64,000 bases of DNA from Eledone cirrhosa (lineage: Eukaryota): the NCBI GenBank assembly GCA_964016885.1, contig OZ024741.1:406100001-406164000 (forward strand), read 5' to 3'. Every line of letters begins with the position of its first letter. The first letter of the stretch is position 1. The notes under the pieces are model-generated. The model was not told the DNA's origin, did not search any database, and saw only the letters and a program-made list of their open reading frames with translations. The position numbers and the translations under genes are program-made. Positions 7,165-46,382 of the stretch are shown one piece after another.

Positions 7165-10100
7165 CTACAGCCGCATGACCAGAGTAGGCCCACTCACACG
7201 GGCCATTCTCGCCACATTCACCCACCTTTCAGCAAATGTACTGGGGGTGGGGTGGGGGGGCAGCACTTCTCTCTCCACCCTCACCTTCCTTTCCAAGTGA
7301 AACTTGAAAAAGTTGATGAGGGATTGGCCGAAGAGAAAAGTGTCTGTCTTCAGTCCTTTCAACCTCGTCCACCATACAACCTCTTTCGCTACTGCCACCA
7401 GACAGAGGAAAATTGCCTGCCCTTCCTGGCCAAAAGAAGGCGGCGGGTCGATCTTCACTATGGACTCGGCCGATAGCCGGATCCGTTCTACACGTGACAA
7501 CAGCTGTTCAACATAACTCCACAAGTCAGTAATGCACGGACACTGGACGAGTGCGTGCAGAACTGTTTCGTCGCTCTGCGCGCATCTCGGGCAGGTCCAT
7601 CTGACAGCACTTCCGTGCCTGTAGAGTTTATCTCGGACCGGCAGTGCCCCCCGGTAGCACTGCCAAGCGAGGGATTTTTGGAAATTATCCATCGTCCCCG
7701 GCTCGAAAGTCCTCCGGTACAGACTGGTTAGTTCGACTTCGTTGACTCCCAGAGCCTCTCCGAGTGCGTCGTCGCACTTACCCACCACTAGTCCTCTATA
7801 GAACTCGAGAGTGGAAGTTCCACTGACCGCATTGCCCGCCTGGTAGAGGGCAGTGAGTGCCTGGCAACATTCCAGATGCCAGTCACCCAGTCTCGGTCTC
7901 TTCTTGACCAAGGACTGCAACTAAGTTAAAGAAACGAGCTGCGGAAAGGCCCGTCTGACAAACGGCGACCACACCTGTTCACCGTTTAGGCAGAATATCT
8001 GGAGATGCCGCAGCCTCAGTGCGTGCCTGCGCATCATTAGCCACGGCATGCCCAGCCCTCCACGTAGAGGGTGCTGGCAGCAGATGGACCGCCTCACCAG
8101 CGGAACCTGACCTCTCCACAAGAATTTGAAGAGGAGCCGCTCCAAGATGGTGAGGCGCGAACGGGGGCAAGGGACGACAGTCAGACGGTAGTAGATGACG
8201 GACGCGATGTACGCGTTCGCCACTTCCGCCCGACCTTTCAGTGATAGCTTCATCCCAGCCCATTTCTGGGTGAGACTGACTACCCTGCTCGTCACCTCGT
8301 CCCAATTCTTATCCACCTGGAGGTCTGGCCCGAACCAAACCCCTAGCAACTTTACCGGTCCGTCCGTCCAGCGCCTAACGATGCTGTTGGACGGCATGGA
8401 CTTGCCTCTCCAGGTGCCGAGTTGCAAGCCCACTGACTTTTCCGGGTTAAGTTTTGCTCCCGTCAACCTTTCATATTCCTCCAATAAGTTGCCGACCACC
8501 TCGATTTCTGAGGTGTCCGACACCATCACGGTGATGTCGTCCGCATAAGCCGACACAGCCTTTCCGCGTCCCGGTTCGAGCGGGATGCCCTGCAACAGCT
8601 CCAGCTTCCGCAGTAATGGCTCGAGAGTCAATACGTACAGAAGGGAGGAGAGAGGGCACCCTTGACGGACCGATCGGGAGACCTGAAACGGTTCCGAGAG
8701 GTGGCCATTAATTTTGACCATCGAGCAGGTGCCGCTGTGCATTGCAGTGATCCAGCTTCTGAAGACGGGGCCGAAGCCAGCCGCCTTGAGGACAGCCTCC
8801 AGGTACCGATGGTCGACCCTATCGAATGCTTTCGATTGATCTAAATTGATCAGATCCCCACTGAAGCCAGGTTTACACCTACCCTCTCTATGATGTATCG
8901 CATTAGGTGGAGGTTGTCGTGTATGGACCTGGTTGGGATTGCGCAAGTTTGCGCCTCCCCAACCAAATCCCCGACGACAAGCGCCAACCTCTTCGCTAAC
9001 ACCCTGGCCAAAATCTTAAACTCTGTGTTGAGCAGTGTTATGGGCCTGAAATTGTCTAATGTGTCCTTCTTGTCCTCGTCTTTCCTTATCAGCGTCACTA
9101 CGCCCCTGCTCACAGAACTGGGAATACTCCCGTTTTGCTGCCAGTTGCAGTAGAGGGCTTCGAGGAGATTGGAGAACAAGTCTGGCATATTTACGTAAAG
9201 CTCGTAGGGCAGACCATCCAAACCGGGTGACTTGCGCCTCATGCAGCCTACAAGCGCATCCTGAATCAGGGCTGAAGTAATTGGCTTTTCGCAGCGCCCA
9301 GAGTCAGCCATCGAGAGTTGCGGCAAGCCATCGAGGTAGGGACTGAAGTCCGCCACAATCTCTGACCCGCCACTTCCCCCGAACAACCGAGCAAAATGTT
9401 GGCATCCTCTTGGAATCGCTCAGCTCGAGCCCGTCTCGGTCTGTCAAAGACCGAATCGTGGTTTTATTACCACGCTGCGCCTCTGCCACGCGGGCCCATC
9501 GAACAGCTTTGGTTCCCTCGTTTCTCAAAGCACGCGCCTTAGCTCTGACCATGCAACCTTCGTGTTTCGCATTGAAGAAATGGTCTAATGCCATTCTCGC
9601 CGCTAGCACATCAGTTGCAATGCCACTACCAATAGCCTCGTCTAACTTATCTACCAACTCTCCCTCCTTTCTATTTTTCTCTAATGCTACTTCTTTGCTA
9701 AACTCTATCGACATTACTCTAATCTCTCTTTTGAGAGCCCCCCACCATCTATTGTTGACGACTCCCCCTGTCAACTTTTTCTTAACTAAATTGTTGACCT
9801 GGTCCTTGTAAGCCTTACGTGCCGGAAATGACATGTTTAGCTTCCAGTAACCAGGTCCTAACCTACGCGTCTTATCTAGGTCGACCATACAGATCACAAA
9901 CTTGTGATCTGAATAGGCGACCGTTTCAAAACGGGGACAGCTTACACTATTTCTGTCTATTTTCCTAATGAATATCCTGTCTATATACGATCTAGATGAC
10001 CCTATGCGGTTATCCCAGGTCCACACTGGCGCATTAGGGAAATATAGTCGGTACCTGTCAGACAGTTGGAACTGGCTTATCAGGTTCTTGAGGCTTTTGC

Positions 10101-10583
10101 ACCCCCCGCTCCTATCGGATACTCCCACACAGTCCCAGCGTGCGTCTAAGATGCCGTTCCAGTCCCCCGCTAACAGTAAAGAGCGAGACGTACCCAGAAA
10201 GGCTTCCAGGCGTCTAAAGTAGTCCGGCCGTCCTGCCCCAGTAGGAGCATAGACGGCCACCAGTCTAAAGGCACCACCTTCATTATTGTTCACGTCCAGG
10301 ACCACCAACTTCCCGTCCGGTCCCGGAAGATCGACCTTACCTCGAGATCCAGGCCTTTCCTAAACAGCACTGCCACCCCGCCTCCCATTTCCGGCTGGCT
10401 AACAGATGCAAAGATCTGATAGTCGTCGAAAATGGGGGCTAGTGCGCGCGTGTCGGAAATCCTGGTCTCGCTGACTGCAATTACATCCATTTCTATAGAC
10501 CTGAGGTCGTTGAGCAGGTGACCCTGCTTCCAGGACGATCCCAGGCCTCGAATATTTAAACATCCTACTCTTAATACGGCCAT
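7165..10583 (-). pseudogene. T2 ORF2 (APE-RT), five ORF pieces
   Basis: CLNIRGL, SET, GDWN, SDH, GYWKLN, KSPGLDGLP, RPITLLN, LDQSKAFDRV, RQGCPLS and YADD are split by frameshifts and one stop. Confidence 0.9.
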
Positions 10584-10614
10584 GTTGGCAGGTTAAACAG
10601 AGAGAGAGGAATGT

Positions 10615-12585
10615 TTACTTACCTTCCTGGCTCTTGTGAAGGTCGGGTTGTTCGACCTCCATAGTTAGTGGGGTTTCTTTTGGGAACCCCTTTAAAAGTC
10701 TTGAAGTGGGTTTTACGTTCAGGGTTCCCACGTCCCGAGGAAAGCTGTCTCGTATTTCTTTGAATATGTCGAGCGACATTCGCACCAGAACCAAATCTTC
10801 CGGCACGCGAAATGTGCTCGATTTAAACATTCCCCCCTCTTTTTGTATATTTTCACTTCGTGCTACGAGGGCCATCAGTTCCTTGTTGGCCCTCCTGACA
10901 AGCACGAAGTTTTGTATGTTTTGTTGGTGTGATTTTATTTGTTTGCGTGGCTGTGGTGGTGATGGTTTTGGTGGTGTTGTTTCGGTTGTGTCTGTGTTTG
11001 TTGTGAGTGCGGTGTCTGTGGTTTCAGATGTTTGTGTGTATATTTGTTCTTGCGTCTGTTTCGGTTGTTTGCGTTTGGGGGATTCTGGTGATGGTGATAG
11101 TGGTGTTGATGTTGGTGTTATTGGAGAGATGTTTGCGTGGATGGTGTCTGCGTTTTTTATTGTGGGTGCTTTTGTGCTTTGTTGAGTTTTTTTTTCTTTT
11201 TGTGTTTCCTTTTTTGTATTTTGGGGGATTTTGGATTTCCCTCATCTTCACTACTAGTAGATGAGGGGTCTGTGTCTGTAAGTGTGTTTGTATGTATGTT
11301 TAAGGTTTTATTGGTGTGTGTATTTGGGGGGGGGGGGGATTTGACAGCTTTCCTCGTTTCCCCCCTGGGTGGTCAATGTTGGTGGTGGTTTTTCTATTGG
11401 TGTTGTAGTTGGTGGTTTTGCCGGTGCAGGTGTTGGTTGTGGTCCTCGCTCCGGCGTCGGCAGCAGTGGAGCCTTTCGACCCCTTGCCTCTTTCAGCAGT
11501 TGAGGGCAGAAGGCTCGCAAATGGGTTTTTTTCCCACAAACAAAACACTGTGGCCTTTTGCCTTCGGTCATAATGTGAATGACAGTCCCATTCTGAAGTC
11601 GGATATGGTCTGGGATTGTCTTCACGTTCTCGGGCCTGACCTGGAGAAGGATCTCCAGGTCAACCCTGGACCAGTCCTCTCTGGCCGTTCTGGTCACTTC
11701 TATAGGGACTGTATCTGTCCCCTCCACAATCACACATCCCAGAAGCCACCACATGTCAAGTCCTGGTGGGATTCTGGGAATGCGGAGACGGGCCGTTCTT
11801 TTTCCCATGTGGGAGGGTACATTATGACCCTGTTGGTTTTGCAAGGAGTCATGGCGTGTTTCATCGCGAGGGCTTCTGACTTGAACAACACCGAAATGGT
11901 GCCGTACTGTCTGCCCCTCTCTATGTACTGGGTGTCTTCTCTGATGCACCTCAGCGCGACTTCGATATCTTCTTGTGGGATTAACGCTGCCCTTTTGGTT
12001 TGTGCTGAGATGCATCTATAATGCACCGTTCTGCGCTCCACTGCCTCAATAGCTTCTACCGGGACAGTTAAGTTGGCCCAGGTTTGCTCTTGCTTGATGA
12101 GCTTCCATGCCTGGGCCAACTTTTCATCTTTGTTTGAGAGGTCCATGTTGAAGCATGGCCCCTTTTTTGCTGCTGCCGCAGCGAAAGTGGTCTTGTTTTC
12201 GTTGGGGGTGTTGTTGACGTTGTTCTTGTTGGTGTTGTTGTTAACACTGTCGCTGTTATCATTGTTGTCTTTGTTGCCACCGTTGTTCTCGGTGCAGTTG
12301 GTATTGTTGCTGTTGGTGTTGTCGCTATTTGTTTTCATGTTAGTGGTGTTGATATTGTTGTTGTATTTGTTTTGTTTTTTTTTGTTATCTGTATTTTCGT
12401 TGTCGCTGTTACTGTCATTTTTTTCAAAATTAGAGTTCTTATTGGTATCATTGGTGTCTTTGTTTACTTTGTTTGTGGTGGTGTTTGTGTTATCAATGTG
12501 TGTTAATTTCGCTGTAGCGCTCCTCTCAACTTCTACGTCATTGTCGCACGACAGCCAACATCGCTGGGGGGCGTGGCTCAGCCAT
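10615..12585 (-). pseudogene. T2 ORF1 (N/T-rich N-terminus, single CCHC knuckle), frameshifted
   Basis: ORF pieces 11730-12338, 11308-12015 and 10615-10905. Confidence 0.8.
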
Positions 12586-13158
12586 GTTTTTTTTTCGTAA
12601 ATTTTTTAACATGTAAAAAAAAAAAGTTCAAATATTTGGGCCAAAAGGCCCAAATATTATACTTTCTCCTTCACGGGGCAAAGTCTAAGGGCTTATATCC
12701 CTTACACAACAAGAAATATTTAACAACAAATAATTTTAACAGGCAAATAAAGCGACTTACTGTGAACGAGCAAAATACATCCGCTTAGACCAATAATAAT
12801 AATAATAATAATACACTATTAATAATTATTAATTAATGCAATCGTGCAATGCCTGTGCGTGACGAATATTTTTAAAGTGAGGAAAGACTGTGCACTGAGC
12901 CAATCCCACTCTCTGAGCGACAGTAGCTATAACCCGAAAAGAAGAAAAGATCAACATCATCGGTAACTACTGAGCCGCAGGTTTTATGTCGGAGTTAACC
13001 CAGTTTCCTGAGATGCCTTCTCCTAGAAGAATGCCCTGACAAGGGCTAGGGGTTTTTCACTCCTAGTGGTTTAACTGCGCGATCGGGCATCCAGCCCGAT
13101 TATTTCTATGTCCCCGCGCAAAAAAAAAAAAAAATTATATATATATATATACATACAT

Positions 13159-13206
<48 letters not shown>

Positions 13207-13296
13207 GAAAATATAGAAATTAATGTGAGCAAGAAGCCAACAGTATTTCATAATATGTAAGTGACTATAACGTCAAAATGGAAAATAATTAACGTA

Positions 13297-13356
<60 letters not shown>

Positions 13357-13464
13357 TGTGTGTGTATACATACATATATGTATATGTGTGTGTGTGTGTG
13401 TGTGCGTGTGTCATTGTGAGTGCTTGTGTATGAGTGTATAAGTGTGTAGATATTATGAAATAAT

Positions 13465-14495: not shown

Positions 14496-14891
14496 CCAAG
14501 CCTTCTAAAGGTAATATAATGATAACCAAAACAAGAATAGAAGATAGTAAGATACTGTGGTAGGTATTGAAGTAGCTATTAAAACTATTGCTATCATTCA
14601 ACACTTTCACATACTGGGGCCCCAAGCTTTAGGGAATTTGAGGTCCTTCTCTAAAAAAATATTATTTATATTTTCATGTTATAAAGAATAGATAGTGTGC
14701 GTGTATGTGTGTGTGTGGTGTGTGGTGTGTGGTGTGTGGGTTCATTTTATTAAGGTTAAATAATGAGTATTGTTACTCGGGCGAATCTCCAGAGTAAGAA
14801 GACTCACTATTTAGCGATAATAAAATGAATATTTAAACTCTATTCCTGTATTGAATACACTTTCCTCTCAGCCGTCACCCACATACATAAT

Positions 14892-14927
<36 letters not shown>

Positions 14928-14961
14928 GTATATATATATATTTATTAAAATAACAGATTAA

Positions 14962-15012
14962 AGTTTAAGCAAAGAATCGCTGCTTTCACCCTTAACGGGA
15001 TCTTCTGAAACT
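14962..15012 (-). ncRNA. Type I hammerhead ribozyme, CAGAAGA core (inverted pLTR copy)
   Basis: Reverse complement of 18639-18689. Confidence 0.8.
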
Positions 15013-18709: not shown

Positions 18710-18763
<54 letters not shown>

Positions 18764-20301: not shown

Positions 20302-20352
<51 letters not shown>

Positions 20353-21550: not shown

Positions 21551-21621
<71 letters not shown>

Positions 21622-29667: not shown

Positions 29668-29840
29668 GTGTAGACAAAGTTTCATACACTTAACATGTAT
29701 GTGCATATACAGTTGAGTATATGACAGTTTGTTTTATTAAATAAGCTCCCTTCCAACAGATTGAGCAGTTTTCCAGGATTTTTCATCCACGGATTTCTAC
29801 CACCGTATATATATATAGAGAGAGAGGAGATAGATAAAAA

Positions 29841-30043
29841 ATGTTATTAGCCACAAGGGCACAAAAGAAGGGGACAAATACAAATGGGGAGTTTACATAC
29901 AGGTATATGAAAATAAAACTATTAATAAAATAACAAATAACAATTGAAATCCCCAATAGGGGAGGTGTTACACAGGAGTTGTACAGGCCCCGAAAAAATG
30001 TACAACCCTCATCTCCAGGAGTGAGTACTCCCTTCCTCTCTTC
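29841..30043 (-). mobile_element. Tx1-type 3' UTR-only fragment (T3)
   Basis: Near-identical to 39925-40137 and flanked by short GATA runs. Confidence 0.88.
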
Positions 30044-30060
30044 CTATATAGATAGATAGA

Positions 30061-33000
30061 AATGTTTCTTTTATTTGCCACCAGGGCATCAAAAGTGGGA
30101 CAAGTACAATGGGCGGAGTTTACAAAACAAGGCGTCCTCAATAAGGAGGAGGCAATAACAAAATATAAAAATAAAATAAAATATAACAGAATAAAATATA
30201 TAACAAAATCCTCAATAGAGAGGAGGCGCCTTGGGGGGGGCGCACACACCCTCGAAAAAAGTGTGCAACCCTTTTCCTCAGGAGCACAGAGAAGGGGTGC
30301 TCCCTTGGTCTTTCATCTTCCTCATCTATAGTCTGATGTAGAGTGAAGGCCCATTCACACGGGCCATTCTCGCCACTTTCACCCATCTTTCATAAAAACG
30401 GCTGGGGTGCAGCACCTCTCTCTCCATCCTGATCCTTCTTCCGAAATGATATCGGAAAAAACGGACCAGTTGTTGGCCAGGGAGAAAGGTGTCTGACCTC
30501 AGTCCTTTCAGACGCGTCCACCATACAACCTCTTTCGCCATGGCTATTACGCACAGAAACACTGCCTCTCATTCGTTTTTGAAGAGGGGAGGCGGCTTGA
30601 TCGTTACAATAGACTCGGTGGTCAACCGGATCGGTCCCACCCTTGACAGCAGTTGTTCGACATAGCCCCACAGATCAGCAATGCCCGAGAAGTGTACCAA
30701 TGCGTGTGCAACGGTTTCCTAGTCGCACACGCATCTGGGACAGATCTTTTTCGAGGGGTCCCTACCCGGGCGCCCGTGTCTGTAGAGCCTTTCTCGAACG
30801 GGCAGAGCCCTTCTGTAGCACTGCCAAGCCAGGGACCTCTGGAAGTTATTCATGGGTCCCGGGCTGAATGTCCTACCGAACAGGTTGGCCAGTTTGTCTT
30901 CCTCCATGCCTAGGGCTTCTCCGAGGGCGTCGTCGCACCTGCTAACCACCAGCCTTCTATAGAATGACGAGATGGATTCTCCACTGACAGACGGGTCCGC
31001 CTGCCAGAGGGCCGTGAGCGCATGGGCACACTCGGTGTGCCAGGCGCCCAGTTTTCTCGGTCTTTGCTTGACCCAGGATTGCAGCTCGGTGAGTGAGACG
31101 AGTCTGGGAATGGCTCGCCTCACAAACGGGGCCCACACCGGTTGACCGGAGAGGAATACCTAGAGGTGCCGTAGCCTTAATGCGTGTTTACGTATCATTA
31201 GCCACGGCATTCCCAACCCTCCTTTCGAAGGGTGTTGACAGCAGATGGATCTCCTCACCATAGGAGCCGGCTTCTTCCAAAGGAATTGGAAGAGTGCGCG
31301 CTCCATTTTGGCGAGCGTTTCCCTTGGGCAAGGCACAACGGTCAGGCGGTAGTAGATGACGGACGCTATATAAGTGCTCGCCACCTCCGCCCGACCTTTC
31401 AGGGACAGTTTGCACTCGGCCCACTTCTGGGTCAGTGCAAACACCCAGTTCATCTCCACCTGGAGGTCTGGTCCGAACCAGACCCCGAGCAACTTCACCG
31501 GGCCCTCCGTCCAGCGCCCGACGACGTCATCGGAGGGCATCGATCTGCCCCTCCACGTGTCGAGTTGCAGACCGATCGACTTGTCGCGGTTCAGCTTAGC
31601 CCCAGTAAACCTTTCGTACTCCTCCAGTAAGGTGCCGATCGCCACGATTTCCGAGGCCGTAGACACCATTACTGTTACGTCGTGGGCGTAGGCCGACACC
31701 GCTTTCCGCAATCCCGGTTCCAACGGGATGCCCTGCAACAACTCCAACTTCCGCAGCAGTGGCTCTAGAGTCATTACATACAGAAGGGAGGAGAGAGGGC
31801 ACCCTTGTCGGATGGACCGCGCGATTTCGAACGGCTCCGAGAGGTAGCCGTTCACCTTGAACCTAGAGCAGATGCGGCTGCTGTGCATGGCATTGATCCA
31901 GCCCCTGAAAACGGGTCCGAAGCCTGCCGCCGCTAGCACCGCATCCAGGTAACCATGCTCGACCCTATCGAATGCCTTAGATTGATCCAAGTTGATCAGG
32001 GCCCCACCAAAGCCGGGTTCGTTCCCAACCCTCTCTATGATGGTGGAGGTTGTCGTGGATGGACCTGGACGGGATAGCACATGTCTGCGAATCTCCCACC
32101 AGGTTGCCCACGACAAGCGCCAACCTCTTTGCTAGCACCTTGGCCAAAATCTGTAACTCTGTATTTAGCAGAGTTATGGGCCTGAAATTATTTATATCGT
32201 CCCCCTTGTTCTCGTCCTTCCTCACTAGCGTGACTACGCCCTTGGTCACAGCCAGGGAATTCTCCAGTTATGTCGCCAGTTGCAGTAGACCGCCTCGAGG
32301 AGATCGGGGAACAAGTCCGGCATAGCTAGATATAGTTCGTATGGAAGACCATCGAGACCCGGGGATTTGCGTTTGCCGCATTGGCTCAGCACGTCCTCTA
32401 TCTCAGCGGCTGAAATCGGCTCCTCGCAGGACTTCGCCTCCCTGTCCGAGAGACGCGGCAGGCCGTCGAGGTATGGACCGAAGTCCACATCCCCAACCGG
32501 CTCCCCGCCCCTTCCGAACAATCCGGCAAAGTGCTTTTGAAAAGCCTCGCACATCTGCTTAGGTTCAAGGATCACTCGTCCATCCTGGTCTCGCAAAGAT
32601 CGGATAGTGGATTTGCTCCCTCTTTTGGCTTCTGTCACGCGGGCCGAGCTAACAGCTTTGGTCCCCTCGTTTCCCAGAGCACGTATTTTGCTTCAGACGA
32701 TGCAGCCTTCGTGTTTCGCGTCGAAGAACTGGCCCAGGGCCGTTCTCGACGCTAGCACTCTGGCCACGTCGCCGCTTCTAATTGCCTCTTCTACACTATC
32801 TACCAACTCCCTTTCCTTCCTATTTCTATTTGAGGCTAACTCCTTACTAAATTCTATAGAGACTACTCTAATCTCTCTTTTGAGAGATCCCCACCACCTG
32901 CTGTTGACGATGGCGCCCATCAACCGCTCCTTAACTAAAGTGCTAATCCGGTCCCTGTAAGCCTTACTTGCCGGTAAGGACAAGTTGAGCTTCCAGTAAC

Positions 33001-35742
33001 CGGGTCCCTGTCTATGAGTTCTGTCAAGGTTGACCATGCAGGTCACTAACTTGTGGTCTGAATAGCCAACCATGCGCATTTTTGGACAACTTAAAAAGGC
33101 CTTATCCTTAATTCTAACTAAGAACCTATCTAGGTACGACCTAGATGATCCGCTATGATTTGCCCAAGTCCAGGTTGGCGCAGTCGGAAAATCTAGTCGA
33201 TATCTATCGGCCAGGTCAAATCGACCGATTAACCCTTTGAGGCTATTACACCCCTCTCTATCGGGACAGGCCCCTACGTAGTCCCAGCGTGCATCTAGGA
33301 TACCATTCCAGTCCCCCACTAATAGCAAGGAGCGGGACGTCCCTAGAAAAGTCTCCAGACGATGGAAGAAGTCCGGCCGCATTGACCCGAAAGGGCCGTA
33401 TGCGGCTACCAACCTAAACGTTCCGCCTTCACCACTGCCAAGGTCCAGAACGACTAGTCGACTCTCCGAGTCCAAATGTACCATCTGTGTTGCGAGACCC
33501 AGATGTTTTTGCAGCAGAACGACAACCCCACCCCCAACTCCGGGCTGACAGAGAGATGCGTGCATCTCAAAGTCATCAAAGGTGGGGGCCAGCTGTCGCA
33601 CGTTGCTGATCCGGGCCTCGCAAATAACCATCACATCTATACGTTGTGACCTGAGGTCATTTAGAAGCATTGCTTGCTTCCAAGTTGAGCCCAGGCCACG
33701 CGCATTTAAACGGCCTACTCTTAGCATAGCCATGTTGGTGGTGAAGAGAAAAGGCACTTACCTCTCTGCGTCCCGGGTATCGGGCTGCACAATTTCCATT
33801 AGGGTGGGGGATGGGTTGTTGAGTGGGGTGTGGTTTGTGGAAGTGTAGGGGCATCAGTGTGTTGTGTGGTTGGGGTGTTTGGAGTTGTGTGGGTGTTTGG
33901 GGAGGGGGTGGGGTAGTTTTTTTAGAAGGACGTGGTTAATGGGCCCGACGCAGGGGGGACCCACGTCCTCTTTAAAGTTGTTTTTTAAAGTTTTATAAGT
34001 GTCCTGTGGGGCCTTAATCATTTTGAGGTGTTGGAAATCCCCTGCCTGGGTGAAGTTAGGCCCTTGGGTTTTTATTGTATTGTTGTTGTACACAATGTTT
34101 AACAGTTTTTTGTTTCTTGTGTTTATGTATGTGTATGCATGTTTTTGTTTTTGTGTGGTGTTTTTTGTTTGCTGTTGTTGTGAGCTCTTTTGTGTTGGTG
34201 TCAGTGTTATGTTTTGGGGAGGGGTTGTTTTCATTTGTGTGTCTGAGGTGTGGTTTTCTTTTTTTTCTTTTGATTGTGTGGAAGTGCTCCTCCTCGTCTG
34301 ACGACGAACTAGGGTCATCTTCCGCGTTGGAGGGGAGGGGTATATTTTCGGGTTGTGTTTGCGGTACGGGTGTTTTGGAAATTGTTTTTTTTTAGTGGGG
34401 AGGATGGGTTGGACATTGTTTTATTTTGGTTTGAGCTGTGGTTGTTGTTTTTGTAGTGGTAATTGTATTGGTTGTGTCGGTTGTGCAGTTGTTGGTGGTG
34501 TAGGCAGGATTGGGGTTTTCTTATTAAGTTGGGGACAGACAGCCCTCAGGTGACCTCTGGTTCCGCAGAGGTAACACGAGGGCCGCCTACCCTCAACGGT
34601 AATGTTGATGAAAGTTTGATCCTCCAGTATGACGCGTTCAGGGATCTGGGCGATCCTTTCGGGCCTCATTTGAACTACAAGTTCGTGGCTCGTTCCACTG
34701 AACGCGTCACTCGATGCCTTTCCCATGGACACCAGCATGTCATCATCCAGGTTCAGGAAACCTGTCAAAACCCACCATATGTCCATAATCGGCAGGATGG
34801 TGTGGATTTTTATTTTTTGTGTTCTTCTACCCATGTACGTAGGGTAGAAGGTGTATGCGGTGGGTGTGATTGGTTTGATGGACAGTTTCACTGCTGTGTC
34901 CCTGTCCTTAATGAGAATGGATAGACTCCCGTAGAGTCTATCCTTCTGAATGAAGGTGATGTCTTTCATGACGTCTTTTAAAACCAGCTCTATCTCACTC
35001 TGTGATGGTTGAGCTGGTTTTTTGCTTTTATTCGAGATTGTCCTAAACATGACAGTGTTTAGGAGTCTCTGGCTTTTTAGTTCCGGGGGGAATGCATCTT
35101 GAATGAACCATTTTCCCCGTACACTATATATTTTTGCATCTGCCAATAGCTCCTTCGCTTTGGTTATATCTACTGGCAGATAGTCGAGGGTTTTCCTTGC
35201 CGTCTGGGCGAAGGAGACCCTTTCCCTGCTTGTGTTGCTGTTGTAGTTGGTGGTGTTGTTGCTATCATTGTTGTTGTTATCACAGTTATTGGTTTTGTTG
35301 TTGTTGTATTGTTATTGGTTTTGTTTTCGTCCGGCGCATTGTTGTTGTTGCCGCTGGTTCTTTGGTTTGTTGCCATGGCAACGTCAAGTTGTCGGTCAGC
35401 AGATGGAGAAAATCCTTCCTCTGGCTGACCTTTGTTTTTGACCTCTGCTACTGTGACAGTGGCAGGGGGAAGCTGTAAGTTTATCTTCCTTTTTCCTCCT
35501 TCGAATTTTGGTGAAGAAGCTTTAGCCATTTTAAAAAATGTTAACTTTTCAACAAGAAAAAAAACTTTTTTTGTTTAACTATTTCGCCTAAAGGCGTAGA
35601 ATATTTTGAGAGACTGACCAGATCAAAATTTGACCTGGCAGTCCCTCTACAAAATGGTACAAAAATTAGAGTTTACAGACAAGAATTTCTATAGAAATTT
35701 AAACAGAACTTACTCAGCAAGTTATACGCGTGTGTCCATCCC
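30061..35742 (-). mobile_element. Full-length L1/Tx1-type LINE (T4) in (GATA)n, disrupted
   Basis: ORF1 (~35529-33758) has CYLCGTRGHLRAVC. ORF2 (33733-30326) has APE, RT (YAHD in place of YADD) and zf-RVT. Confidence 0.92.
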
Positions 35743-35743
35743 A

Positions 35744-35756
35744 GAGATAGATAGAT

Positions 35757-35835
<79 letters not shown>
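35744..35835. repeat. (GATA)n microsatellite between T4 and T5
   Basis: Direct reading. Confidence 0.97.
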
Positions 35836-38800
35836 TGTTTATTAGCCACAGGGGCACAACAGAAAGGGACAAATACAAAGGGGGAAGTTTACATAGAATA
35901 AAAACGTGTAAAATATTATCACGAATGTAATTTAAAAATTAGTCGATTTTCCCCAATAGGTGGAGACATTTCATATGGGTAACACATAGCCCCGAAAAAA
36001 ATTTGCAACCCTCATCTTCAGGAGTACGAAGAGTTTGTATTCCTTTCCTCTCCTCCTCTTTTTCCTCAACCTACAGGCTGATATAGAGAGAAGGCCCATT
36101 CACTCAGGCCATTCTCACCACTTTCACCCACCTTTCATAAAACTTGCTGCGGTACAGCACCTCTCTCTCCATCCTGATTTTTATTCCAAAGTGGTATTTG
36201 AAAAAAAGAATCAATTGTTGGCGGGAGAGAAAGGTCTCTGAACTCAACCCTTTCATCCTTGTCCACCATACAACCTCTTTCGCCATAGCTATCACACAAA
36301 GGAAAACCGCCTTCCTTCGTTTTTGAAGGAGGGTAGCGGTTTGATCATGACAATGGACTCAGTGGTCAACCGGATTGGTCCCACCCGCGAAAATAGTCGA
36401 TCTACATAGCCCTACAGGTCGGTGACGCCCGGGCAGTGTATGAATGCGTGCGTGACGGTTTCTTCGTCTCGCACGCACCTCAGACAGATCTTTTTTTGGA
36501 GAGTCCCTGCTCGGGCGCCCATGTCTGTAGAGCTTTCTCGAACTGGTAGAGCTCCTCGGTAGCACTGCCAGGACAGTGACTTTTGGAAGTTGTCCATCGG
36601 TCCTGGGCGGAAGGTCCTACGGAACAGACTGTTCAGTTCGTCTTCCTCTACGCCCAGAGTTTCACCGAGCACGTCGTCGCACTTGCTGCGGATCAACCCT
36701 CTATAGAATAACGAAGTGGAGTCACTAATGACCGCCGGGTCCGCCTGCCAGAGGGCTGTGAGCGCCTGAGCACATTCGATGTGCCAGTCGCCCATTTTCC
36801 TCGGTCTTTGCTTGACCCAGGACTGCAGCTCGGTCAGCGAGACGAGTCGTGGCAACGTTGTCTGGTGAGGAATACGTGGAGATGCCGCAGCCTGAGCGCG
36901 TGTTTGCGCATCGTCAGCCACGGCATCCCCAGCCCCCCATTGGAAGGGCGTTGGCAGCAGATGCATGTTCTCACCAAAGGAGCCCGCCTCTTCCAAAGGA
37001 ATTGGAAGAGCGCGCGCTCCATTTTGGCGAGCGTTTTGGCTGGACAAGGCACGACGGTCAAGCGGTAGTAGATGGCGGACGCTATAAAAGTGTTCGCCAC
37101 CTCCGCTCGACCTTTCAAGGATAGTTTGCACTCGGCCCACTTCTGGGTGAGTGCAAACACCTTGGCCGACACCGCGTTCCAGTTCTTCTCCACCTGGAGG
37201 TCCGGACCAAACCAGACCCCGAGCAGCTTTACTGGTCCTTCCGTCCAGCGTCCGACGACGCCATCAGAAGGCATCGGTTTGCTTCTCCACGATCCGAGTT
37301 GCAAACCGATGGATTTGTTCCGGTTCAGCTTCGCTCCTGTGAACCTTTCGTATTCCTTCAGTAAGGTGCCGACTTCCTCGATTAGCGAGGCGCTCGACAC
37401 TATTACTGTCACGCCGTCGGCGTAGGCTGACGCCGCTTTCCGCAGTCCCGGTTCCAGAAGGATGCCCTGCTAAGAATAGCTCCAACTTATTATAATAGCT
37501 CCAACTTATATTATAATAGCTCCGCTGTAGTGGCTCGAGAGTCAATACGTACAGAAGGGAGGAGAGAGGGCATCCCTGTCGAATGGATTGCGTGATATGG
37601 AACGGCTCCGAGAGGTAGCCGTTCACCTTAACCCTTGAGCAGATGTTGCTGTTATGCATTGCAGAAATCCAGCCCCTGAACACGCGTCCGAAGCCTGCCG
37701 CCTCGAGCACCGCATCCAGGTAACGATGGTCAACCCTATAAAAAGCCTTAGACTGATCCAAGTTGATCAGGGCCCCACCGAAGCCGGGTTTACACCCTAC
37801 CCTCTCTATGATGTATCGCATGATGTGGAGGTTGTCGTGTATGAACCTGGTCGGGATTGCCCATGTCTGCGCTTCTCCCACCAGGTTCTCGACAAGCGCC
37901 AGCCTCTATGCCAACGCCTTGGCCAAAATCTGTAACTCTTTGTTTAGCAGGGTTATGGGGCGGAAGTTGCCTATGTCATCCCCCTTATTCTCGTCCTTCC
38001 TGACTAGTGTGACTTCGCCCGCGGTCACAGAACTGGGAATTTTCCCGTTCTGTTGCCAGTTGCAGTAGACCGCTTCCAGGAGACCGGAGAATAAGTCGGG
38101 CATTGCTACGTAAAATTCGTAGGGTAGACCGTCGAGACCTGGAGATTTGCGTTTGCCGCATTGGCTCAACGCGTCCCCTATCTCAGCGGCTGAAATCGGC
38201 TTTTTGCAGAACTTTGCCTCGCTGTCCGAGAGTCGCGGTAGGCCGTCGTGGTATGGACCAAAATCCAAAGCCCCTCCCGGCGCACCGCCCTTCCCGGACA
38301 GCCGAGCAAAGTGCCGCTGAAAGGCCGCACACATCTGCTTCGGCTCACGTATCACGCGTCCGTTTTGGTCCTTCAAAGACCGAAGCGTAGACTTGTTGCC
38401 ACTTTTTGCCTTCGTCACTCGGGCCCAGCTAACAGCTTTGGCTCCCTCCTTTCCTAGAGCACGTATTTTGCTTCTGACAACGCAGCCTTCATGCTTTGCG
38501 TCGAAGAACTGGTCTAAGGCCGTTCTCGCTGCTAGCACGCTGGCTACGTTGCCACTTCTAATTGCCTCTTCTACTTTATCTACCAGTTCCTTCTCGGTTC
38601 TATTTCTATCTAACGCTAATTCTTTACTAAAAACTAACGAGTCTAATCTAACTGCTTTCTTGAGAGAGTACCACCATCTGTTGTTGACAATGGCCCTTGT
38701 CAAGTGCTGTTTAACTAAAGTGCTAATCCGTCTACTGTAGGCTTTGCATGTCGGTAACAACAAGTTCAGCTTCCAGTAGCCGGGTCCTTGTCTATGGGTT

Positions 38801-39915
38801 CTATCAAGGTTGACCATGCAGGTCACTAGTTTGTGATCTGAATAGGCAACCATGAACATTTGTGGACAGCTTAACATGTCCCTATCCTTATTTCTAACTA
38901 GAACCCTATCTAGGTACGATCTAGATGTTCCGCTATGATTAGTCAACGTCCACAGTGGCACAGTCGGAAAATCTAGTCGATATCTATCGGCCAGGTCAAA
39001 TCGGCTGATTAACTGTTTGAGGATGTTACCCCCCCCCCCTTTTTCGGGACATGCTCCCACATAGTCCCAACATGCATCTAGGATTCCATTCCAGTCCCCC
39101 ACTAAAATCAAGGAGCGGGACGTTCCCAGAAAAGTCGCTAGACGTTTGAAGAAGTCTGGCCGTGGTGTCCCGGATGGGGCATATGCGACCACCAGCCTGA
39201 AGGCTCCACCTTCACTACCATCAACGTCGCAGACCACCAGTCGATCCCCCGGGTCCAGATATACCGTCTGTGTTACGAGGCCCAGGTGTTTCTGCAGCAA
39301 AACGGACCCCCGTCCCACCCATCCCGGCTGACAGAGAGATGCGTAGATCTCAAAGTCATCGAAGATGGGGGCTAGCTGTCGCTCGCTGTGGATCCCGGAC
39401 TCGCCAATTGCTACTACATCCATACTGTGCAACTGAACTGAGGTCGTTTAAGTGTTTGCCCTGTTTCCAGGGCATCCCCAGGCCGCGTACATTCACACAG
39501 CCAACTCTTATATTAGCCATGTTGGTTCTGAAAAGTTAAAAGAGGAGAAAAAACACTCACCTCTTCGTCTCCCGGGGATCAGGCCGCACGGTTTCCATGG
39601 GGGTGTTAGAGGATTTGTCTGGGTGGGTGGTTGTTTCCGGCGGGGTGGGGACGGAGATGTTTGGTGGGGTGGGGGTATCTGGGATGAGGGTGGGGAAACT
39701 TTTTTAAAGGACGTGGTTAATGGGTTTAACACAAAGATTACCCACGTCCTTAGGAAAGTTTTCCTTTAAAGACTTATAGGTGTCCGTAGGGACCCTAATC
39801 ATCTTTAAATTAGGTTTGTCTACACAGTTCGAAAAAGTTTTCATTGGATATGACCTCCATTAAAGTTTTGTTTTTACTGTTTATGTATGTGTAATGTTCT
39901 TGTTGTGTTGCGGTG
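35836..39915 (-). mobile_element. L1/Tx1-type LINE (T5), 5'-truncated within ORF1, disrupted
   Basis: ORF2 (39520-36071) is in pieces and the ORF1 C-terminus is at 39915-39557. Confidence 0.92.
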
Positions 39916-39919
39916 ATAA

Positions 39920-40439
39920 ATTTCTTTATTAGCCACAAGGGCACACAAGAAGGGGACAAATACAAATGGGGAGTTTACATACAGGTATATGAAAATAAAA
40001 CTATTAATAAAATAACAAATAACAATTGATATCCCCAATAGGGGGAAGGTGTTACACAGGGGTTGTACACAACCAGAAAAAATGTACAACCCTCATCTCC
40101 AGGAGCACCAAGAGTGAGTACTCCCTTCCTCTCTTCCTCTTTTTTTTCTCAACCTACAGGCTTATATAGAGAGAAGGCCCAACCACTCGGGCCATCTTTG
40201 CCACATTCACCCACCTTTTATAAAATTTTCTGGGGTACAGCACCTCTCTCTCCATCCTGATTCTTCTTCCAAAATGATATTTGAAAAAACGAATCAGTTG
40301 CTCGCCGGAGAGAAAGGTGTCTGACCTCAGACCTTTTAACCTCGTCCACCATATAACCTATTTCACCATAGCCATAACACATAGGAAAACCGCCTCTCCC
40401 TCGTTTTTGAAGGAGGGTGGCGGTTTGATCATGACAATG

Positions 40440-40440
<1 letters not shown>
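39920..40440 (-). mobile_element. Tx1-type 3' fragment (T6)
   Basis: ORF2 C-terminus (stop 40154) plus 3' UTR. The truncated 5' end abuts (GATA)n. Confidence 0.9.

Positions 40441-40492
<52 letters not shown>
40440..40492. repeat. (GATA)n microsatellite between T6 and T7
   Basis: Direct reading. Confidence 0.97.
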
Positions 40493-40494
<2 letters not shown>

Positions 40495-43400
40495 TTCTAT
40501 TTATTTGCCACGAGGGCACAAAAGAAGGGGACAAATACACAGGGGGGAGTTTACATAAATGCGAGTAAAGAAAAAAAGGAATAACAATAAGAATAATATA
40601 ATAATAAAAAGTCCTCAAAAGGGAGGGGGGTGTTGGGGATTGCACATACCCCCGAAAAGTGTGCAACCCTTTTCCCGGGGGAAGCCCAGAGAGGAGGCGC
40701 TCCCCCTTTCCACTTCACTTCTTCACCTACAGAACAATTTAGAGAGAAGGCCTATTTACACGAGCCATTCTCGCCTCTTTCACCCACCTTTCATAAAACT
40801 GTCTGGGGCCAAGCACTTCTCTCTCCATCCTGATCCTTCTTCCGAAGTGGTATCGGAAGAAGTAAACCAGGTGTTGGCCGGAGAGAAAGTCACCCGACCT
40901 CAGACCTTTCAGGCGCGTCCACCACACAACCTCTTTCATCATGGCTATTACGCACAGAAAGACTGCCTCTGCTTCATTTCTGCAGGGAGGAGGCGGCTTG
41001 ATGTTCACCACGGACTCGGCGGCCAATCGAATCGGCGCCACACGCGACAGCAGTCGTTCGACGTAGCCCCACAGATCGGCAACGCCCGGGCAGTGTACCA
41101 GTGCGTGCGCAACGGTTTCCTCGTCGCGCACGCATCTGGGACAGATCTTTTTCGCGGGATCCCTGCCCGGGCGCCCGTGTCTGTAGAGTTTTTCTCGAAT
41201 GGGCAGAGCCCCCGGTAGCACTGCCAGGCTAGGGACCTCTGGAAGTTGTCCATGGGTCCCGGGCCGAAAGTTCTACCGAACAGGCTGGCCAGTTCGTCCT
41301 CCTCCATGCCTAGCGACTCTCCAAGGGTGTCATCGCCCCTGCTAGCCACCAGCCCTCTATAGAATGTCGAGGTGGATTCTCCACTGATAGTCGGGTCCGC
41401 TTGCCAGAGAGCCGTGAGCGCCTAGGCACACTCGGTGTGCCAGTTGCCCAGTTTTCTCGGTCTTTGCTTCACCCAGGATTGCAGCTCGGTGAGCGAGACG
41501 AGCTGTGGGAAGGCTCGCCTCACAAACGGGGCCCACACCGGCTGACCAGTGAGGAATACCTGTAGATGCCGTAGCCTCAATGCGTGCCTACGCATCAACA
41601 GCCACGGCATACCCAGCCCTCCTTTCGAAGGGTGCTGGCAGCAGATGTATCTCCTCACCATGGGAGGCCGCTTCTTCCAGAGGAACTGGAAGAGCATGCG
41701 CTCCATGATGGTGAGCGTTTCCTTAGGGCAAGGCACGACGGTCAGGCGGTAGTAGATGACGGACGCTAGGTAAGCGTTCTCCACCTCCGCCCGACCTTTC
41801 AGTGATAGTTTGCACTTGGCCCACTTCTGGGTCAGCGCAAACACCCTGCTCGTCACCTCCCCCCAATTCTTCTCCACCTGGAGGTCCGGTCCGAACCAGA
41901 CCCCGAGCAGCTTCACCAGGCCCTCCGTCCACCGACACCGTCTAACGGCATCGGTTTGCCCCTCCACGTTCCGAGTTGCAAACCGACTGACTTGTCCCGG
42001 TTCAGCCTAACCCCCGTCAGCCTTTCGTATTCCTCCAGTAGGGTAGCGATCGCCCCGATTTCCGAGGCGTCCGCCAACATTACTGTTACGTCATCGGCAT
42101 AGGCCGAGACCGCTTTGTGCAATCCCGGTTCCAAGGGTATGCCCCGCAGCAACTCCAACTTCCACAGCAGTGGCTCGAGAGCCAATACGTACAGAACGGA
42201 GGAGAGGGGGCGCCTCTGCCTGATGGACCGGGTGATTTGAAACGGCTCCGAGAGGTAGCCGTTTACCTTAACCCTAGAACAGACGTTGCCACTGTGCATG
42301 GCAGAAATCCAGCCCCTGAAAACGGGTCCGAAGCCCGCCGCCGCTAGCACCGCATCCAGGTAACCATGGTCGACCCTATCGAACGCCTTAGATTGATCTA
42401 AGTTGATCAGGGCCCCACCAAAGTCGGGTTCGTTCCCAACCCTCTCTACGATGTATCGCATGAGGTGGAGGTTGTCGTGAATGGACCTGGACGGGATAGC
42501 GCATGTCTGCGCGTCTCCCACCAAGCCATCCACCACAAGCGCCAACCTCTTCGCTAACACCTTGGCCAAAATCTGTAACTCTGCATTCCGCAGAGTTATG
42601 GGCCTAAAGTTACTTATGTCGTCCCCCTTGCTCTCGTCCTTCCTCACTAGCGTGACTACGCCCTTGGTCACAGAACAGGGAATTCTCCCGTTCTGTTGCC
42701 AGTTGCAATAGACAGCCTCGAGGAGATCGGAGAACAAGACCAGCATAGCTAAATAAAGTTCGTATGGTAAACCATCGAGACTCGGAGATTTGCGTCTGCT
42801 GCATTGGCTGAGCGCTTCCCCGATTTCAGTGGCTGTGATTGGCCTTTCGCAGCACTCCGCTTCGCCGCTCGAAAGACGCGGTAGACCGTCGAGGTATGGA
42901 CCGAAGTCCACATCCCCGTCCGGCCCCCCGCCCCCTCCGAACAGTCGAGCAAAGTGCCTTTGAAAGGCCTCGCACATCCGCTCAGGTTCAAGGATCACCC
43001 GTCCATCCTGGTCTCGCAAAGACTGAATGGTGGATTTAATCCCACTCTTGGCTTCTGTCACGCGGGCCCAGCTAACAGCTTTGGTCCCCTCGTTTCCTAA
43101 AGCACGTATTTTACTTCGGACAACGCAGCCTTCGTGCTTCGCGTCAAAGAACTGGCTCAACGCCGTTCTCAACGCTAACACTCTGGCCACGTCTCCGCTC
43201 CTAATCGCCTCTTCTAGTTTATCTGTTAACTCCCTTTCCTTCCTATTTCTATTTGCCGCTAGTTCCTTACTGTAACCTATCGAACTTACTCTTATCTCTC
43301 TCTTTAGAGATACCCACCACCTGCTGTTGACGATCACTCCCGTCAACCGCATATTAACTAAGCTACTAATCCCGTTCCTGTAAGCTTCCTTTGCCTGCAA

Positions 43401-46382
43401 GGACAAGTTCATCTTCCAGTAACCGGGACCCTGTCTATGCGTTCTATCAAGGTTGACCACGCAGGTCACTAATTTGTGATCTGAATAGCCAACCATGAGC
43501 AATTCTGGACAACTAAATACGTCGCTATCCTTACTCCTAACCAAAAACCTATCTAGGTACGATCTAGATTGACCAGTGCGGTTTGCCCAAGTCCAGGTTG
43601 GCACAGTTGGAAAATCTAGTCGAAATCTATCGACCAGATCGAATCGATCGAGTAACCCCTTGAGGCTGCTACACCCCCCTCTATCGGGACATGCCCCTGC
43701 ATAGTCCCAACGCGCATCTAGGATTCCATTCCAGTCCCCCACTAAAAGCAGGGAACGCGACGTTCCTAGAAAAGTCTCCAGACGCTGGAAGAAGTCGGCT
43801 CTTTCAGCCCCGAAGGGGGCATAAAGACCGACCAGTCTGAAAGCCCCGCCTTCACCGCCTCCGACGTCCAGCACCAGTAATCGACCCCCCGGATCCGAGT
43901 GAACAATCTGTACGTCGAGAGCCAGACGTTTATCCAGCAGTACGGCAACCCCACCCCTACTTCCGGGTTGACAGAGAGATGCGTGCATCTCAAAGTCATC
44001 GAAGGCAGAAGCCAGCTGTCGCACGCTGCTGATCCGACTCTCGCAAACAACCATCACATCTATACTTCGTGACCTGAGGTCACTTAGAAGCTTTGCTTGC
44101 TTCCAAGCTGAGCCCAGGCCACGCGCATTCAAACAACCAACTCTCAATTGATCTATTTTGGTGTTGAAAGTGAAGAAAGAAAAGCACCTACCTCTCCGGG
44201 TTGTGCAATTTCCATGGGGTCGGGTGTGAGTGTGGTGGGGTTGGGGTATTTGGAGTTGTGTCAGGGAGAGGGGAGGTTATGGGGAAATCTTTCAAGAGGA
44301 CGCGATTTAACGGTTTTAAACAGGGAGGGGGGGGATCACGTCCTGTTTAAATTGTTCTTTTAAGGAACGATAAAGGTCCAGAGGAACCTTTATCATTTTT
44401 AAATGGGTGAAGTTCTCTGTTGAGATAAAGTTTGGCCCTTCGGTCTGCACCAAAGGGCTATTGTTTATTAATTTAAACAGTTTTTTTGTTTTCTTTATTT
44501 ATATATGTGTATTGTAAAGTCTTTTTTTGTGATGCTGTCAATGTTTCGAAGGGGGGAGGCGCAGATTTATTTTTGTTTGTCGAGGGTGGGGTGTTTTTGA
44601 TTGGAGTTGGTGTTTGTGTGTGGGTTATTTGTTGTTGTGGTGTGCTGGGTGTGTGCTTTCGTTTTTTCCTTTTAACTTGTCTGAAGGCTTCTCCTCCTTC
44701 TTCTTCAGAAGTTGGGGGAAACTCTTCAGCGCTAGGTGGGAGGGAGGTGGTGTCTGGTTGTTGTTTTTTTGCGGGAGGGGTAGAATTGTTGCTGTTTTTT
44801 TTATTATTTGTTTGGAATGTGTTTTGTGGTGGTGGTGGTGGTGATGTTTGTGTCGTGCTTGTGGTTGGTGATGGTGGTGGTGATGTTTGTGTTGTGCTTG
44901 TGGTTGGTGATAGTGGTGGTGATTTTGTGTCGTGCTTGTGTTTGGTGCTGGTGGTGGTGATGTTTGTGTTGTGCTTGTGGTTGGTGGTGTCTGTATGTTG
45001 TTTGCTGTGTGTGTTGGTGGTGTTAGTGTATTTTTGGAGGTGGGTGGTGTTGGTGTACTGTTTGTGGTGGGTGTGGGCAATAGTCCTTTTGGGGGGATAC
45101 GATTCGGGCAGTTAGCCTTAACGTGTCCCCTTTCCATGCATGAATAGCATGCTGGTCTTCTCCCCTCTACAATTATATATATTGGGGTGAGGTCATCCAG
45201 CCAGATGCGGTCCGGGATTTGCGCTATTCTTTCGGGCCTCATTTGTACTAGTAGGTCGAGGCCCATTCCCAGGAACGTATCTCCAGATGCCTTCCCCATT
45301 GACAGCACTGTGTCCTCGCCCATGTCTATGAAGCCAGCAATAGCCCACCAGAAGTCCATTGTGGGCAGCATTGTCTGTATTTTGATTCTCTGAGTTCTTC
45401 TACACATGTAGGAGGGATAGAAACTGTATGCTGTTGATGTAAGTGGGCTTAGGGAAAGCCTCTGTGCTGTTTCTTTGTCTTTTTTACAAACAGAAATGCT
45501 GCCATAGAGTCGGTCCTTTCGTATGAAGAGAATATTCTTCATATGGTCTTTTAGGACCAACTCTATTTCCGTTTGGGTGGGCTGAGCTGGTTTCCTTGTG
45601 TTGTTTAGGACTGTTCTAAACAGAACAGTGTTTTCTTGTCTCGTTTTCTTGAATTCTGGGGGGGGGGGGGGGGGAATTAATGGAAAACATTCCGTTCTCC
45701 CCCAAGACTATGTGCTTTTTTGCTTCTGCCAGTTTCTCTCTGGCGGCAGTTAAGTCAATAGGTGTATATGTGATAGATGTTTTTGTTGTCTGGGCGAAAG
45801 TTGTTTTTGTTGTGTTTGTGTTATTTATGATGGTGTATTCGTTCACATTTTTTTTTCCTTTGGGGTTAGACTCCATTTTTTCAAAATCTTCACTTATATT
45901 TTCATTATCCTCGAGACTTGTAGTCACAGCTACTACTTCTCTTTCACCTTTGCTGGTGGGCGTGGCGCCGTGAAAAGTCGAAACGTCATCCATTAATTTG
46001 GCAATTTCTCCGAGTTAATTTTTTTCACATTTTTTTTTCATTAGGATTAGGTTCCATTTTTTCAATGTTTCTAATAATCATTATTCTTTCAGTAGAGTGG
46101 CTTGTTGCCTCAGCTACCCGCTCTCCTTTAGTTTGTTTAGTGGGGGTGTCATCGTTAGCTGTGGTAATGGCTTCCATTACCACTAGCGTAGAGACAATTG
46201 CAAGATTTTTAGGATGAAAAATTTCACCCCAAAAGGGGTGAAATAAATTAACCCTAATGTCCGAAGACCCAGGCAAGGGGGTTAATTAACACAATAACGC
46301 AAGAATACAGACAAACACTTACTGTTAACACGTAGTATCTCCAATAACCGCGGAGCCGATGTGAAGCACGTCTATGCCATCC
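40493..46382 (-). mobile_element. Full-length L1/Tx1-type LINE (T7) in (GATA)n, disrupted
   Basis: ORF1 (~46177-44188) has CYSCMERGHVKANC. ORF2 (~44156-40727) includes a 744-aa piece with APE and RT (YADD). (GATA)n lies at 46384-46405. Confidence 0.92.

Follow-up and report, generated by a model that had tools for sequence, protein, structure and literature searches.

Probable Tx1-type LINEs of Eledone cirrhosa and a sister family share a strong splice-donor sequence where ORF1 ends

Introduction

The nearest described counterpart of the arrangement treated here, a splice-donor sequence at the stop of the first open reading frame (ORF1) of long interspersed nuclear elements (LINEs), comes from Ty1/Copia retrotransposons such as EVD. 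The LINEs in question lie in a stretch of 64,000 nucleotides (nt) from Eledone cirrhosa (GenBank assembly GCA_964016885.1, contig OZ024741.1, positions 406,100,001 to 406,164,000), hereafter called the window, and probably belong to the Tx1 group. BARE, a further Ty1/Copia element, is reportedly to be placed beside EVD with regard to the splicing of shGAG. In EVD, a conserved donor is located near the end of gag, and U1 has a dual role in Ty1/Copia elements (PMC5580714). With regard to shGAG, the likeness comprises a conserved donor close to where the structural-protein gene ends, a stop directly after the junction, and a donor that is better conserved than the acceptor. The spliced short RNA yields the structural protein, while the unspliced RNA serves for the enzyme and as template, a division of tasks that for the present elements is proposed from their sequence. 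The same literature describes elements with long terminal repeats (LTRs), a single gag-pol frame, and a short intron followed by early polyadenylation. In contrast, the window elements are non-LTR, bicistronic LINEs with the donor on or directly after the natural ORF1 stop, and with further donor sequences at the end of ORF2 and in the 5' untranslated region (UTR). Being non-LTR elements with two ORFs, they are not members of copia and resemble it in their working at most.

A second point of comparison is human L1 with its spliced SpIRE and SpORF2 RNAs. Common to both are an L1-group LINE, conserved splice sites and a donor in the 5' UTR not far from the element start; retrocopies of spliced L1 RNA are rare, at about 2% (PMC5860796, PMC2896524). 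The L1 donors differ in that they are located in the 5' UTR and remove the promoter or ORF1, which results in ORF2-only or dead-end RNAs. Splicing is described as a dead end for L1 (PMC5860796), and the portions of this literature that are accessible describe neither an ORF1-stop donor nor an ORF1-only spliced RNA.

Kibi, which targets (TC)n, Koshi, which targets (TTC)n, and the crocodilian Tx1 elements share with the window elements the two ORFs, the apurinic/apyrimidinic (AP) endonuclease, reverse transcriptase (RT) and zinc finger, and insertion into microsatellites (PMC4494074). The targets in the window are (ATT)n and (ATCT)n instead, and the accessible text of that study does not mention splice signals at the ORF ends. 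Finally, the antisense introns of TART provide an example of conserved splice sites in a non-LTR element, but these are antisense, located in the UTRs, and without a protein product (PMC1636488).

The donor sequence at the ORF1 stop

The ORF1 stop carries a strong donor sequence, which lies above chance expectation and recurs in a sister family. The window consists of AT-rich animal DNA with microsatellites, copies of short interspersed nuclear elements (SINEs), and a minus-strand cluster of decayed LINEs with two ORFs. Copies T2, T4, T5, and T7 retain the junction of ORF1 and ORF2. The original prediction had placed a 5' splice consensus at each of these junctions, and the sequence agrees with it letter for letter (a slash marks the predicted cut):

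10617..10625, minus strand: T2 ORF1-stop donor, AAG/GTAAGT, phase 1 (E/GK-stop), followed by a pyrimidine-rich run; rank 1 of 318
33756..33764, minus strand: T4 ORF1-stop donor, GAG/GTAAGT, phase 2 (R-stop); rank 1 of 281
39555..39563, minus strand: T5 ORF1-stop donor, GAG/GTGAGT, phase 2 (R-stop); rank 1 of 220
44186..44194, minus strand: T7 ORF1-end donor, GAG/GTAGGT, behind a short deletion; rank 2 of 286

Ranks are given among all sense-strand GT sites of each element, and were obtained with approximate donor and acceptor matrices. The overlap of the ORF1 stop with the donor was equally borne out in T2, T4, and T5. T7, which had been described as looking frameshifted, has a gap of 16 alignment columns directly upstream of its donor relative to T4, and R-stop is read in one frame. 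The distance from the donor to the start of ORF2 is 39 nt in T2, 28 nt in T4, 40 nt in T5, and 35 nt in T7, where ATA takes the place of ATG. When each 70-nt junction was subjected to 20,000 Markov resamplings, the donor score was reached at P 0.0009–0.0035. Four-fold sites of T2 and T4 are identical in only 67 of 118 cases, yet AGGTAAGT is identical across the phase change. Among six ORF1 homologs with the C-terminal domain, two end in GK or GKS, the ending that marks phase 1 in T2 (P0198; P0194, Argonauta). All four predicted sites are real, but T4, T5, and T7 form one lineage with 76–83% DNA identity, so that the window provides two independent cases and not four.

A 33-nt intron within the spacer was rejected, as the CAG with a pyrimidine run 33 nt past the donor (39528) occurs in T5 alone. 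For P0195, an O. sinensis model, a spliced exon as the source of its tail was rejected, as the model comes without DNA to check.

Recurrence in sister families

The sister family is found in G001, animal DNA in a bacterial bin (GTDB, titled uncultured Arenicella sp., contigs C3–C19). Arrays in which intact LINEs stand head to tail take up about half a megabase of this DNA, with 54 intact ORF2s, whose identity to ORF2 of the window families is 42%. Except for one TA tract, no repeat common to G001 and the window was found. The subfamilies of G001 have ORF2 in common (92–97%), with 5' UTR and ORF1 swapped. In the main family, AAG/GTAAGT lies one base past the ORF1 stop in 65/65 ORF1 ends, including all 52 intact copies, and 13 nt ahead of the ORF2 ATG, while the two following bases vary. 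This donor is the top-scoring site in 13 of the 14 main-family contigs listed, and resampling of the junction gives P 0.002. As it is placed past the ORF1 stop, with an intron side that is wholly non-coding, coding does not explain the motif, which upholds what had been argued from the window copies. The weight of G001 lies in a separate lineage having this site, rather than in conservation inside G001, whose copies are tandem arrays of perhaps 8–10 independent subfamilies.

An older relative in the sister lineage, L104, has kept GAG/GTAAGT with a different stop codon, spacing, and spacer. A second bacterial bin (G002:C16) contains animal DNA with decayed copies. Of its three decayed junctions, the first retains the donor, its stop and spacing being different, another is without the G, and the last is deleted; the deletion (G002:C16:419553) was rejected as a spliced copy because its end is not at an AG. 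Across the lineages, the phase and the distances to the stop and to the ORF2 ATG (11–40 nt) vary, while AG/GTRAGT stays. The third family, C13 of G001, with two intact copies, has a stop-start overlap of ORF1 and ORF2 (TAATG) and no ORF1-stop donor. In a quick tree, C13 is sister to the G001 main family, with the window families outside both, which implies one loss or two gains of the ORF1-stop donor.

With L104 set apart as sister lineage, none of 20 distant ORF2 starts scores at least 9 and one scores at least 7 (background 1.3% and 6.7%), and the donor was therefore rejected as a general Tx1/L1 feature. Two distant elements show other sequences at this place. L010 has an acceptor-like pyrimidine run with CAG 14 nt ahead of the ORF2 ATG (around 2775), and the decayed L018 reads AAG CTAAGT, a pyrimidine run, and CAAC ATG (7780–7815), like the spacer of T2 without the GT.

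The stop of ORF2

ORF2 ends in TAG at 7165, 30326, 36071, 40154, and 40727 (T2, T4, T5, T6, and T7, respectively) and in TAA in T1, as the original prediction had it. The sites are as follows:

7157..7170, minus strand: T2 ORF2 stop, CTGTAG/GTAGGTAA; weak acceptor (3.7), good donor (8.9, rank 6 of 318)
30318..30331, minus strand: T4 ORF2 stop, here TAG/ATGAGG; G at 30325 in related copies gives TAG/GT with a donor score of 9.2
36063..36076, minus strand: T5 ORF2 stop, CTGTAG/GTTGAG; weak acceptor (3.1), weak donor (0.1)
40719..40732, minus strand: T7 ORF2 stop, CTGTAG/GTGAAG; acceptor 4.4, donor 6.1

T6 has the same donor score as T5 (0.1). In relatives of T4, the G at 30325 accounts for 214,725 of 214,821 in summed depth, in runs that look genomic.

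The acceptor-like character proposed for this stop does not exceed chance. Among the AGs downstream of the donor, it ranks 26 of 269, 108 of 255, 34 of 259, and 18 of 265 in T2, T4, T5, and T7, the copies scored, and it is 13th of the 89 AG columns common to all four. Synonymous recoding of the last eight ORF2 codons equalled or beat the acceptor score at P 0.32, 0.80, 0.79, 0.95, and 0.055, which is not above chance and led to the rejection of the pyrimidine run as a selected tract. The pyrimidines are the codons of a conserved G-P-S/T-L end that is also present in homologous proteins. Another AG is located 7 nt upstream in T4, T5, and T6, and a frequent T4-related family has TAG/GC preceded by a poor tract (loose end at 30347). 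The acceptor AG is absent from T1 (TAA), from 7 of 61 G001 ends (TCG), and from C13 (TAA). An ORF2-stop acceptor is not a clade-wide feature but a mediocre candidate in the window families.

The original prediction also held that the join may provide ORF1 with a new C-terminus, a basic one in T5. When donor and ORF2 stop are joined in silico, a new basic tail arises in T5 alone, one of four copies, and was rejected as a rule. T2, T4, and T7 regain ORF1's own end, namely GR-stop for GK-stop in T2, and R-stop in T4 and T7. In T4 and T7, the donor-like GTRA by itself yields the restored stop, while T2 needs an extra TAA, a coincidence estimated at roughly one in five. Owing to this restoration, the ORF2-stop acceptor remains a candidate for the window families.

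In G001, GTRAGT follows 14 nt past the ORF2 stop, or lies on the stop where the frame is longer, in 61/61 ends, and its +3 position varies between A and G, within the donor consensus. C13 has CAG/GTAAGT 40 nt past the ORF2 stop, and G002 has the second donor at three of four decayed ORF2 ends. By parsimony, the ORF2-stop site would be a second donor rather than an acceptor. The best non-coding acceptor candidate of G001 is found in the 3' UTR, where a pyrimidine run and TAG follow 236–263 nt on in 59 of 61 copies, with a mean score of 8.8, third of 209 shared AGs.

Donor-like sites in the 5' UTR

Donor-like sequences also occur close to the start of the three full-length window copies:

12755..12763, minus strand: T2 5' UTR donor-like site, ACA/GTAAGT, 30 nt from the element start
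35708..35716, minus strand: T4 5' UTR donor-like site, TGA/GTAAGT, 32 nt from the element start
46317..46325, minus strand: T7 5' UTR donor-like site, ACA/GTAAGT, 63 nt from the element start

GTRAGT is present on the sense strand four times in T2, twice in T4, once in T5, and twice in T7, and six of these nine sites belong to the 5' end or to the stop of ORF1. In G001, AAA/GTAAGT is found in the 5' UTR of 8 of the 14 main-family contigs listed. A separate pair of sites is present in the 5' UTRs of C3, C5, C8, and C12 of G001 (e.g., L060 10280–10462), consisting of a G/GTAAGA donor and a conserved T-rich CAG/GGGTTC acceptor. Both precede the ORF1 ATG and may delimit a 5' UTR intron in these subfamilies.

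Proposed mechanism and competing explanations

The ORF1-stop donor is likely a U1 small nuclear ribonucleoprotein (snRNP) site kept by selection. In the explanation preferred here, which is tentative with a probability of roughly 0.45, the elements carry U1 sites, the one at the ORF1 stop is spliced in part of the RNA, and U1 also guards the full-length RNA. U1 snRNP would bind the predicted donor at the ORF1 stop, and splicing of part of the RNA from there would give an ORF1-only message, with the unspliced RNA as ORF2 message and copying template. By analogy with copia EVD, the role may be dual, combining splicing with the suppression of early polyadenylation. With an exon junction on the stop codon, ORF1p would stay whole and the message would escape junction-dependent decay, which follows the 50-nt rule. 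As acceptor, the 3' UTR pyrimidine run and TAG, about 240–260 nt in, would be available to G001, and the mediocre ORF2-stop AG to the window families. An ORF2-less RNA would be unable to copy itself in cis, and the ORF1-stop donor would consequently not be purged by retrotransposition.

Several observations weigh against partial splicing at a selected donor. All scores and ranks depend on the approximate matrices mentioned above. Donors arise easily on stop codons, as TAA and TGA supply half of GTRAGT. Inside G001 alone, conservation is not significant (P about 0.25; seven invariant bases, with 90 of 495 four-fold sites varying). C13, intact without the donor, indicates that the site is dispensable in the clade. 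The acceptor at the ORF2 stop ranks low, and when all shared AG columns were scored, the window families showed neither a conserved 3' UTR acceptor nor a conserved strong acceptor. No ORF2-less copy was found behind the donor at the 65 G001 ORF1 ends, a small sample for a 2% class; this blank is weak because an ORF2-less RNA needs copying in trans and spliced L1 copies amount to about 2% (PMC5860796). A joint from donor to ORF2 stop is absent from the best 15 of 312 joints on T4, taken from contigs of three runs of one sample that behave like genomic DNA (3'-heavy depth). Copies without the stretch behind the second donor were not found among 61 G001 ends either. A message spliced at the second donor would still encode both proteins and soon lose the intron, so splicing at this donor is probably infrequent, unless the stretch itself is required. 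In human L1, a conserved donor has been explained by an overlapping RUNX3 site and not by splicing (PMC5860796).

The best-surviving alternative, named in the original prediction and a serious rival though somewhat unlikely, is that U1 docks on the RNA and splicing is rare or absent. Bound at the ORF1 stop, close to the 5' end, and past the ORF2 stop, U1 would support transcription and hold back polyadenylation on an intronless 6-kb RNA, and the last site could damp the element's AATAAA, leading to read-through into the microsatellite target. The three donor-like sites occupy the only non-coding places, U- or pyrimidine-rich runs follow most of them, and 61/61 copies still have the second donor unspliced. 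Anti-termination by U1 has been shown for EVD (PMC5580714). The lack of a conserved strong acceptor in the window families and copies that end in AATAAA and a microsatellite without poly(A) fit docking as well, whereas G001 retains its good 3' UTR acceptor candidate, and the stop restored in T2 follows the phase of T2. Moreover, some splicing is usual where RNA made by polymerase II has a perfect donor and acceptors further on.

Less probable still, and unlikely, is that U1 has no role and that a stop-codon context combined with an ORF2 translation signal or a DNA-binding site has been kept by descent, the likeness to a donor being accidental. Stop codons supply TRA, and the window contains two lineages only. 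L018 keeps the surroundings of the motif without the GT, C13 lacks the motif where stop and start overlap, and the RUNX3 site of human L1 is a precedent (PMC5860796). However, the motif of G001 is a full match past the stop, AG/GTRAGT persists while phase and distances vary, and the A/G variation at +3 of the second donor stays within the consensus.

Exact removal of ORF2, a sub-case of the preferred explanation in which the ORF2 TAG is the acceptor of the window families and the next bases rebuild the ORF1 stop, is favoured by TAG/G in T2, T5, T6, T7, and relatives of T4 and by the ends restored in phase-1 T2 and phase-2 T4 and T7, but is doubtful given the low acceptor scores, the codon-explained pyrimidines, the nearby upstream AG, the TAA of T1, the TAG/GC family, the phase-2 stop that donor-like GTRR yields alone, and sister families with a donor, not an acceptor, at the ORF2 stop.

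A bolder version of partial splicing, which seems rather improbable, is a clade-wide programmed switch. The ORF1-stop donor would remove ORF2 to produce a decay-proof ORF1-only mRNA and compete with the ORF2-stop donor, thereby setting the ratio of ORF1p to ORF2p and the template supply through U1, and the ORF2 stop in the window would be a joined acceptor-donor that rebuilds the ORF1 stop. Such control of a LINE through U1 is likened to that of retroviruses and copia.

Organisation and classification of the elements

The Tx1-type pieces of the window are arranged as follows:

3560..4310, minus strand: T1, 3' fragment ahead of (ATT)n; ORF2 stop TAA, without AG
6863..12790, minus strand: T2, full-length decayed Tx1-type LINE flanked by (ATT)n; ORF1 ATG 12585, ORF2 10583–7165
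29830..30045, minus strand: 3' UTR-only fragment, 92% like T6
30050..35745, minus strand: T4, full-length decayed, flanked by (ATCT)n; ORF1 ATG 35529, ORF2 33733–30326
35835..39915, minus strand: T5, 5'-truncated, keeping the final 355 nt of ORF1; ORF2 39520–36071
39915..40441, minus strand: T6, 3' fragment; ORF2 stop 40154, CTGTAG/GTTGAG
40490..46385, minus strand: T7, full-length decayed, flanked by (ATCT)n; ORF1 ATG 46177, ORF2 44156 (ATA)–40727

ORF2 in the window frames matches Pfam PF03372 (AP endonuclease), PF00078 (RT), and PF13966, and has a C-terminal zinc finger. The sole PDB match of the endonuclease is the L1-type endonuclease structure 2v0s. The nearest named proteins are from Argonauta, with 61–64% identity. 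The separate, upstream ORF1 contains a CCHC knuckle (C-x2-C-x4-H-x4-C) in T2, T4, and T7; a Pfam search with ORF1 gave no match. Its homologs are named CCHC-type proteins of Octopus species. A word search for ORF1 yielded none from 2461 candidates, and a search with the C-terminus gave four proteins, three of which were known before. In an RT tree made by a quick method, the window and sister families form a well-supported clade of 22 rows.

T1 and T2 end in (ATT)n, while T4, T5, T7, and the fragment at 29830 end in ATCT repeats. T2, T4, and T7 also begin in the same repeat as their 3' end, and T6 abuts T5 directly. The 3' ends consist of AATAAA and a microsatellite without poly(A). Such repeat targets are as expected for microsatellite-targeting Tx1 families (PMC4494074). 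The elements are probably Tx1, a label that is based on structure and targeting rather than on a tree with named Tx1 references. For an octopus assembly, 80 L1-Tx1 families have been listed, of which 13 were recently active (PMC13282606). Between 29830 and 46385, five Tx1 pieces of different subfamilies are placed head to tail on one strand, with ATCT repeats or nothing between them, as a targeting pile-up.

All seven Tx1 3' ends have a small hairpin, whose loop reads C-Y-N-G-T and whose stem has 3–4 bp, directly before AATAAA (minus strand, 3590, 6914, 29857, 30084, 35852, 39939, and 40514). The stem is flipped (GGC..GCC) in the G001 families and in eight SINE copies of the window (6694, 13488, 20167, 29114, 48543, 48865, 51128, and 51298). 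The hairpin is likely an RT-recognition stem-loop, and a LINE-SINE partner link is possible. Rfam and tRNA scans were empty but for two chance-level matches.

Further pieces of the window are presumably RTE-, Dong/R4-, and Penelope-like, labels based on motifs. An RT fragment that appears Dong/R4-like in (TAA)n (4704–6371, plus strand) and a seemingly RTE-like element (1–3340, minus strand) share the microsatellite cluster of T1 and T2. An inverted duplication of 3.3 kb (12290–15571 and 18096–21345, 98% identical) contains the 5'-most 500 nt of T2 and lies on either side of a presumed Penelope-like ORF of 713 amino acids (15586–17727), which has no Pfam match. The same layout is found a second time in the window, with a 710-nt inverted duplication (56526–57235 and 59853–60562, 99.4% identical) around a second Penelope-like ORF (58064–59902). 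Among viral contigs, none of nine candidates was confirmed.

Significance

A search of the open-access literature found no LINE described as having a donor at its ORF1 stop; subscription papers and Repbase notes may hold more. The accessible parts of papers on octopus and bivalve repeats do not mention one. Spliced LINE RNAs and the gag-type logic of copia were known before.

According to current teaching, LINEs are unspliced bicistronic RNAs, in which the excess of ORF1p is set at translation. Selection for an ORF1-stop donor in lineages with 42% ORF2 identity would, if true, mean that a LINE employs the spliceosome or U1 deliberately and has converged with copia in this respect. Even if U1 only docks at every ORF end, which is the weaker reading, this would bear on the way in which long, intronless RNAs of retroelements avoid being terminated early.

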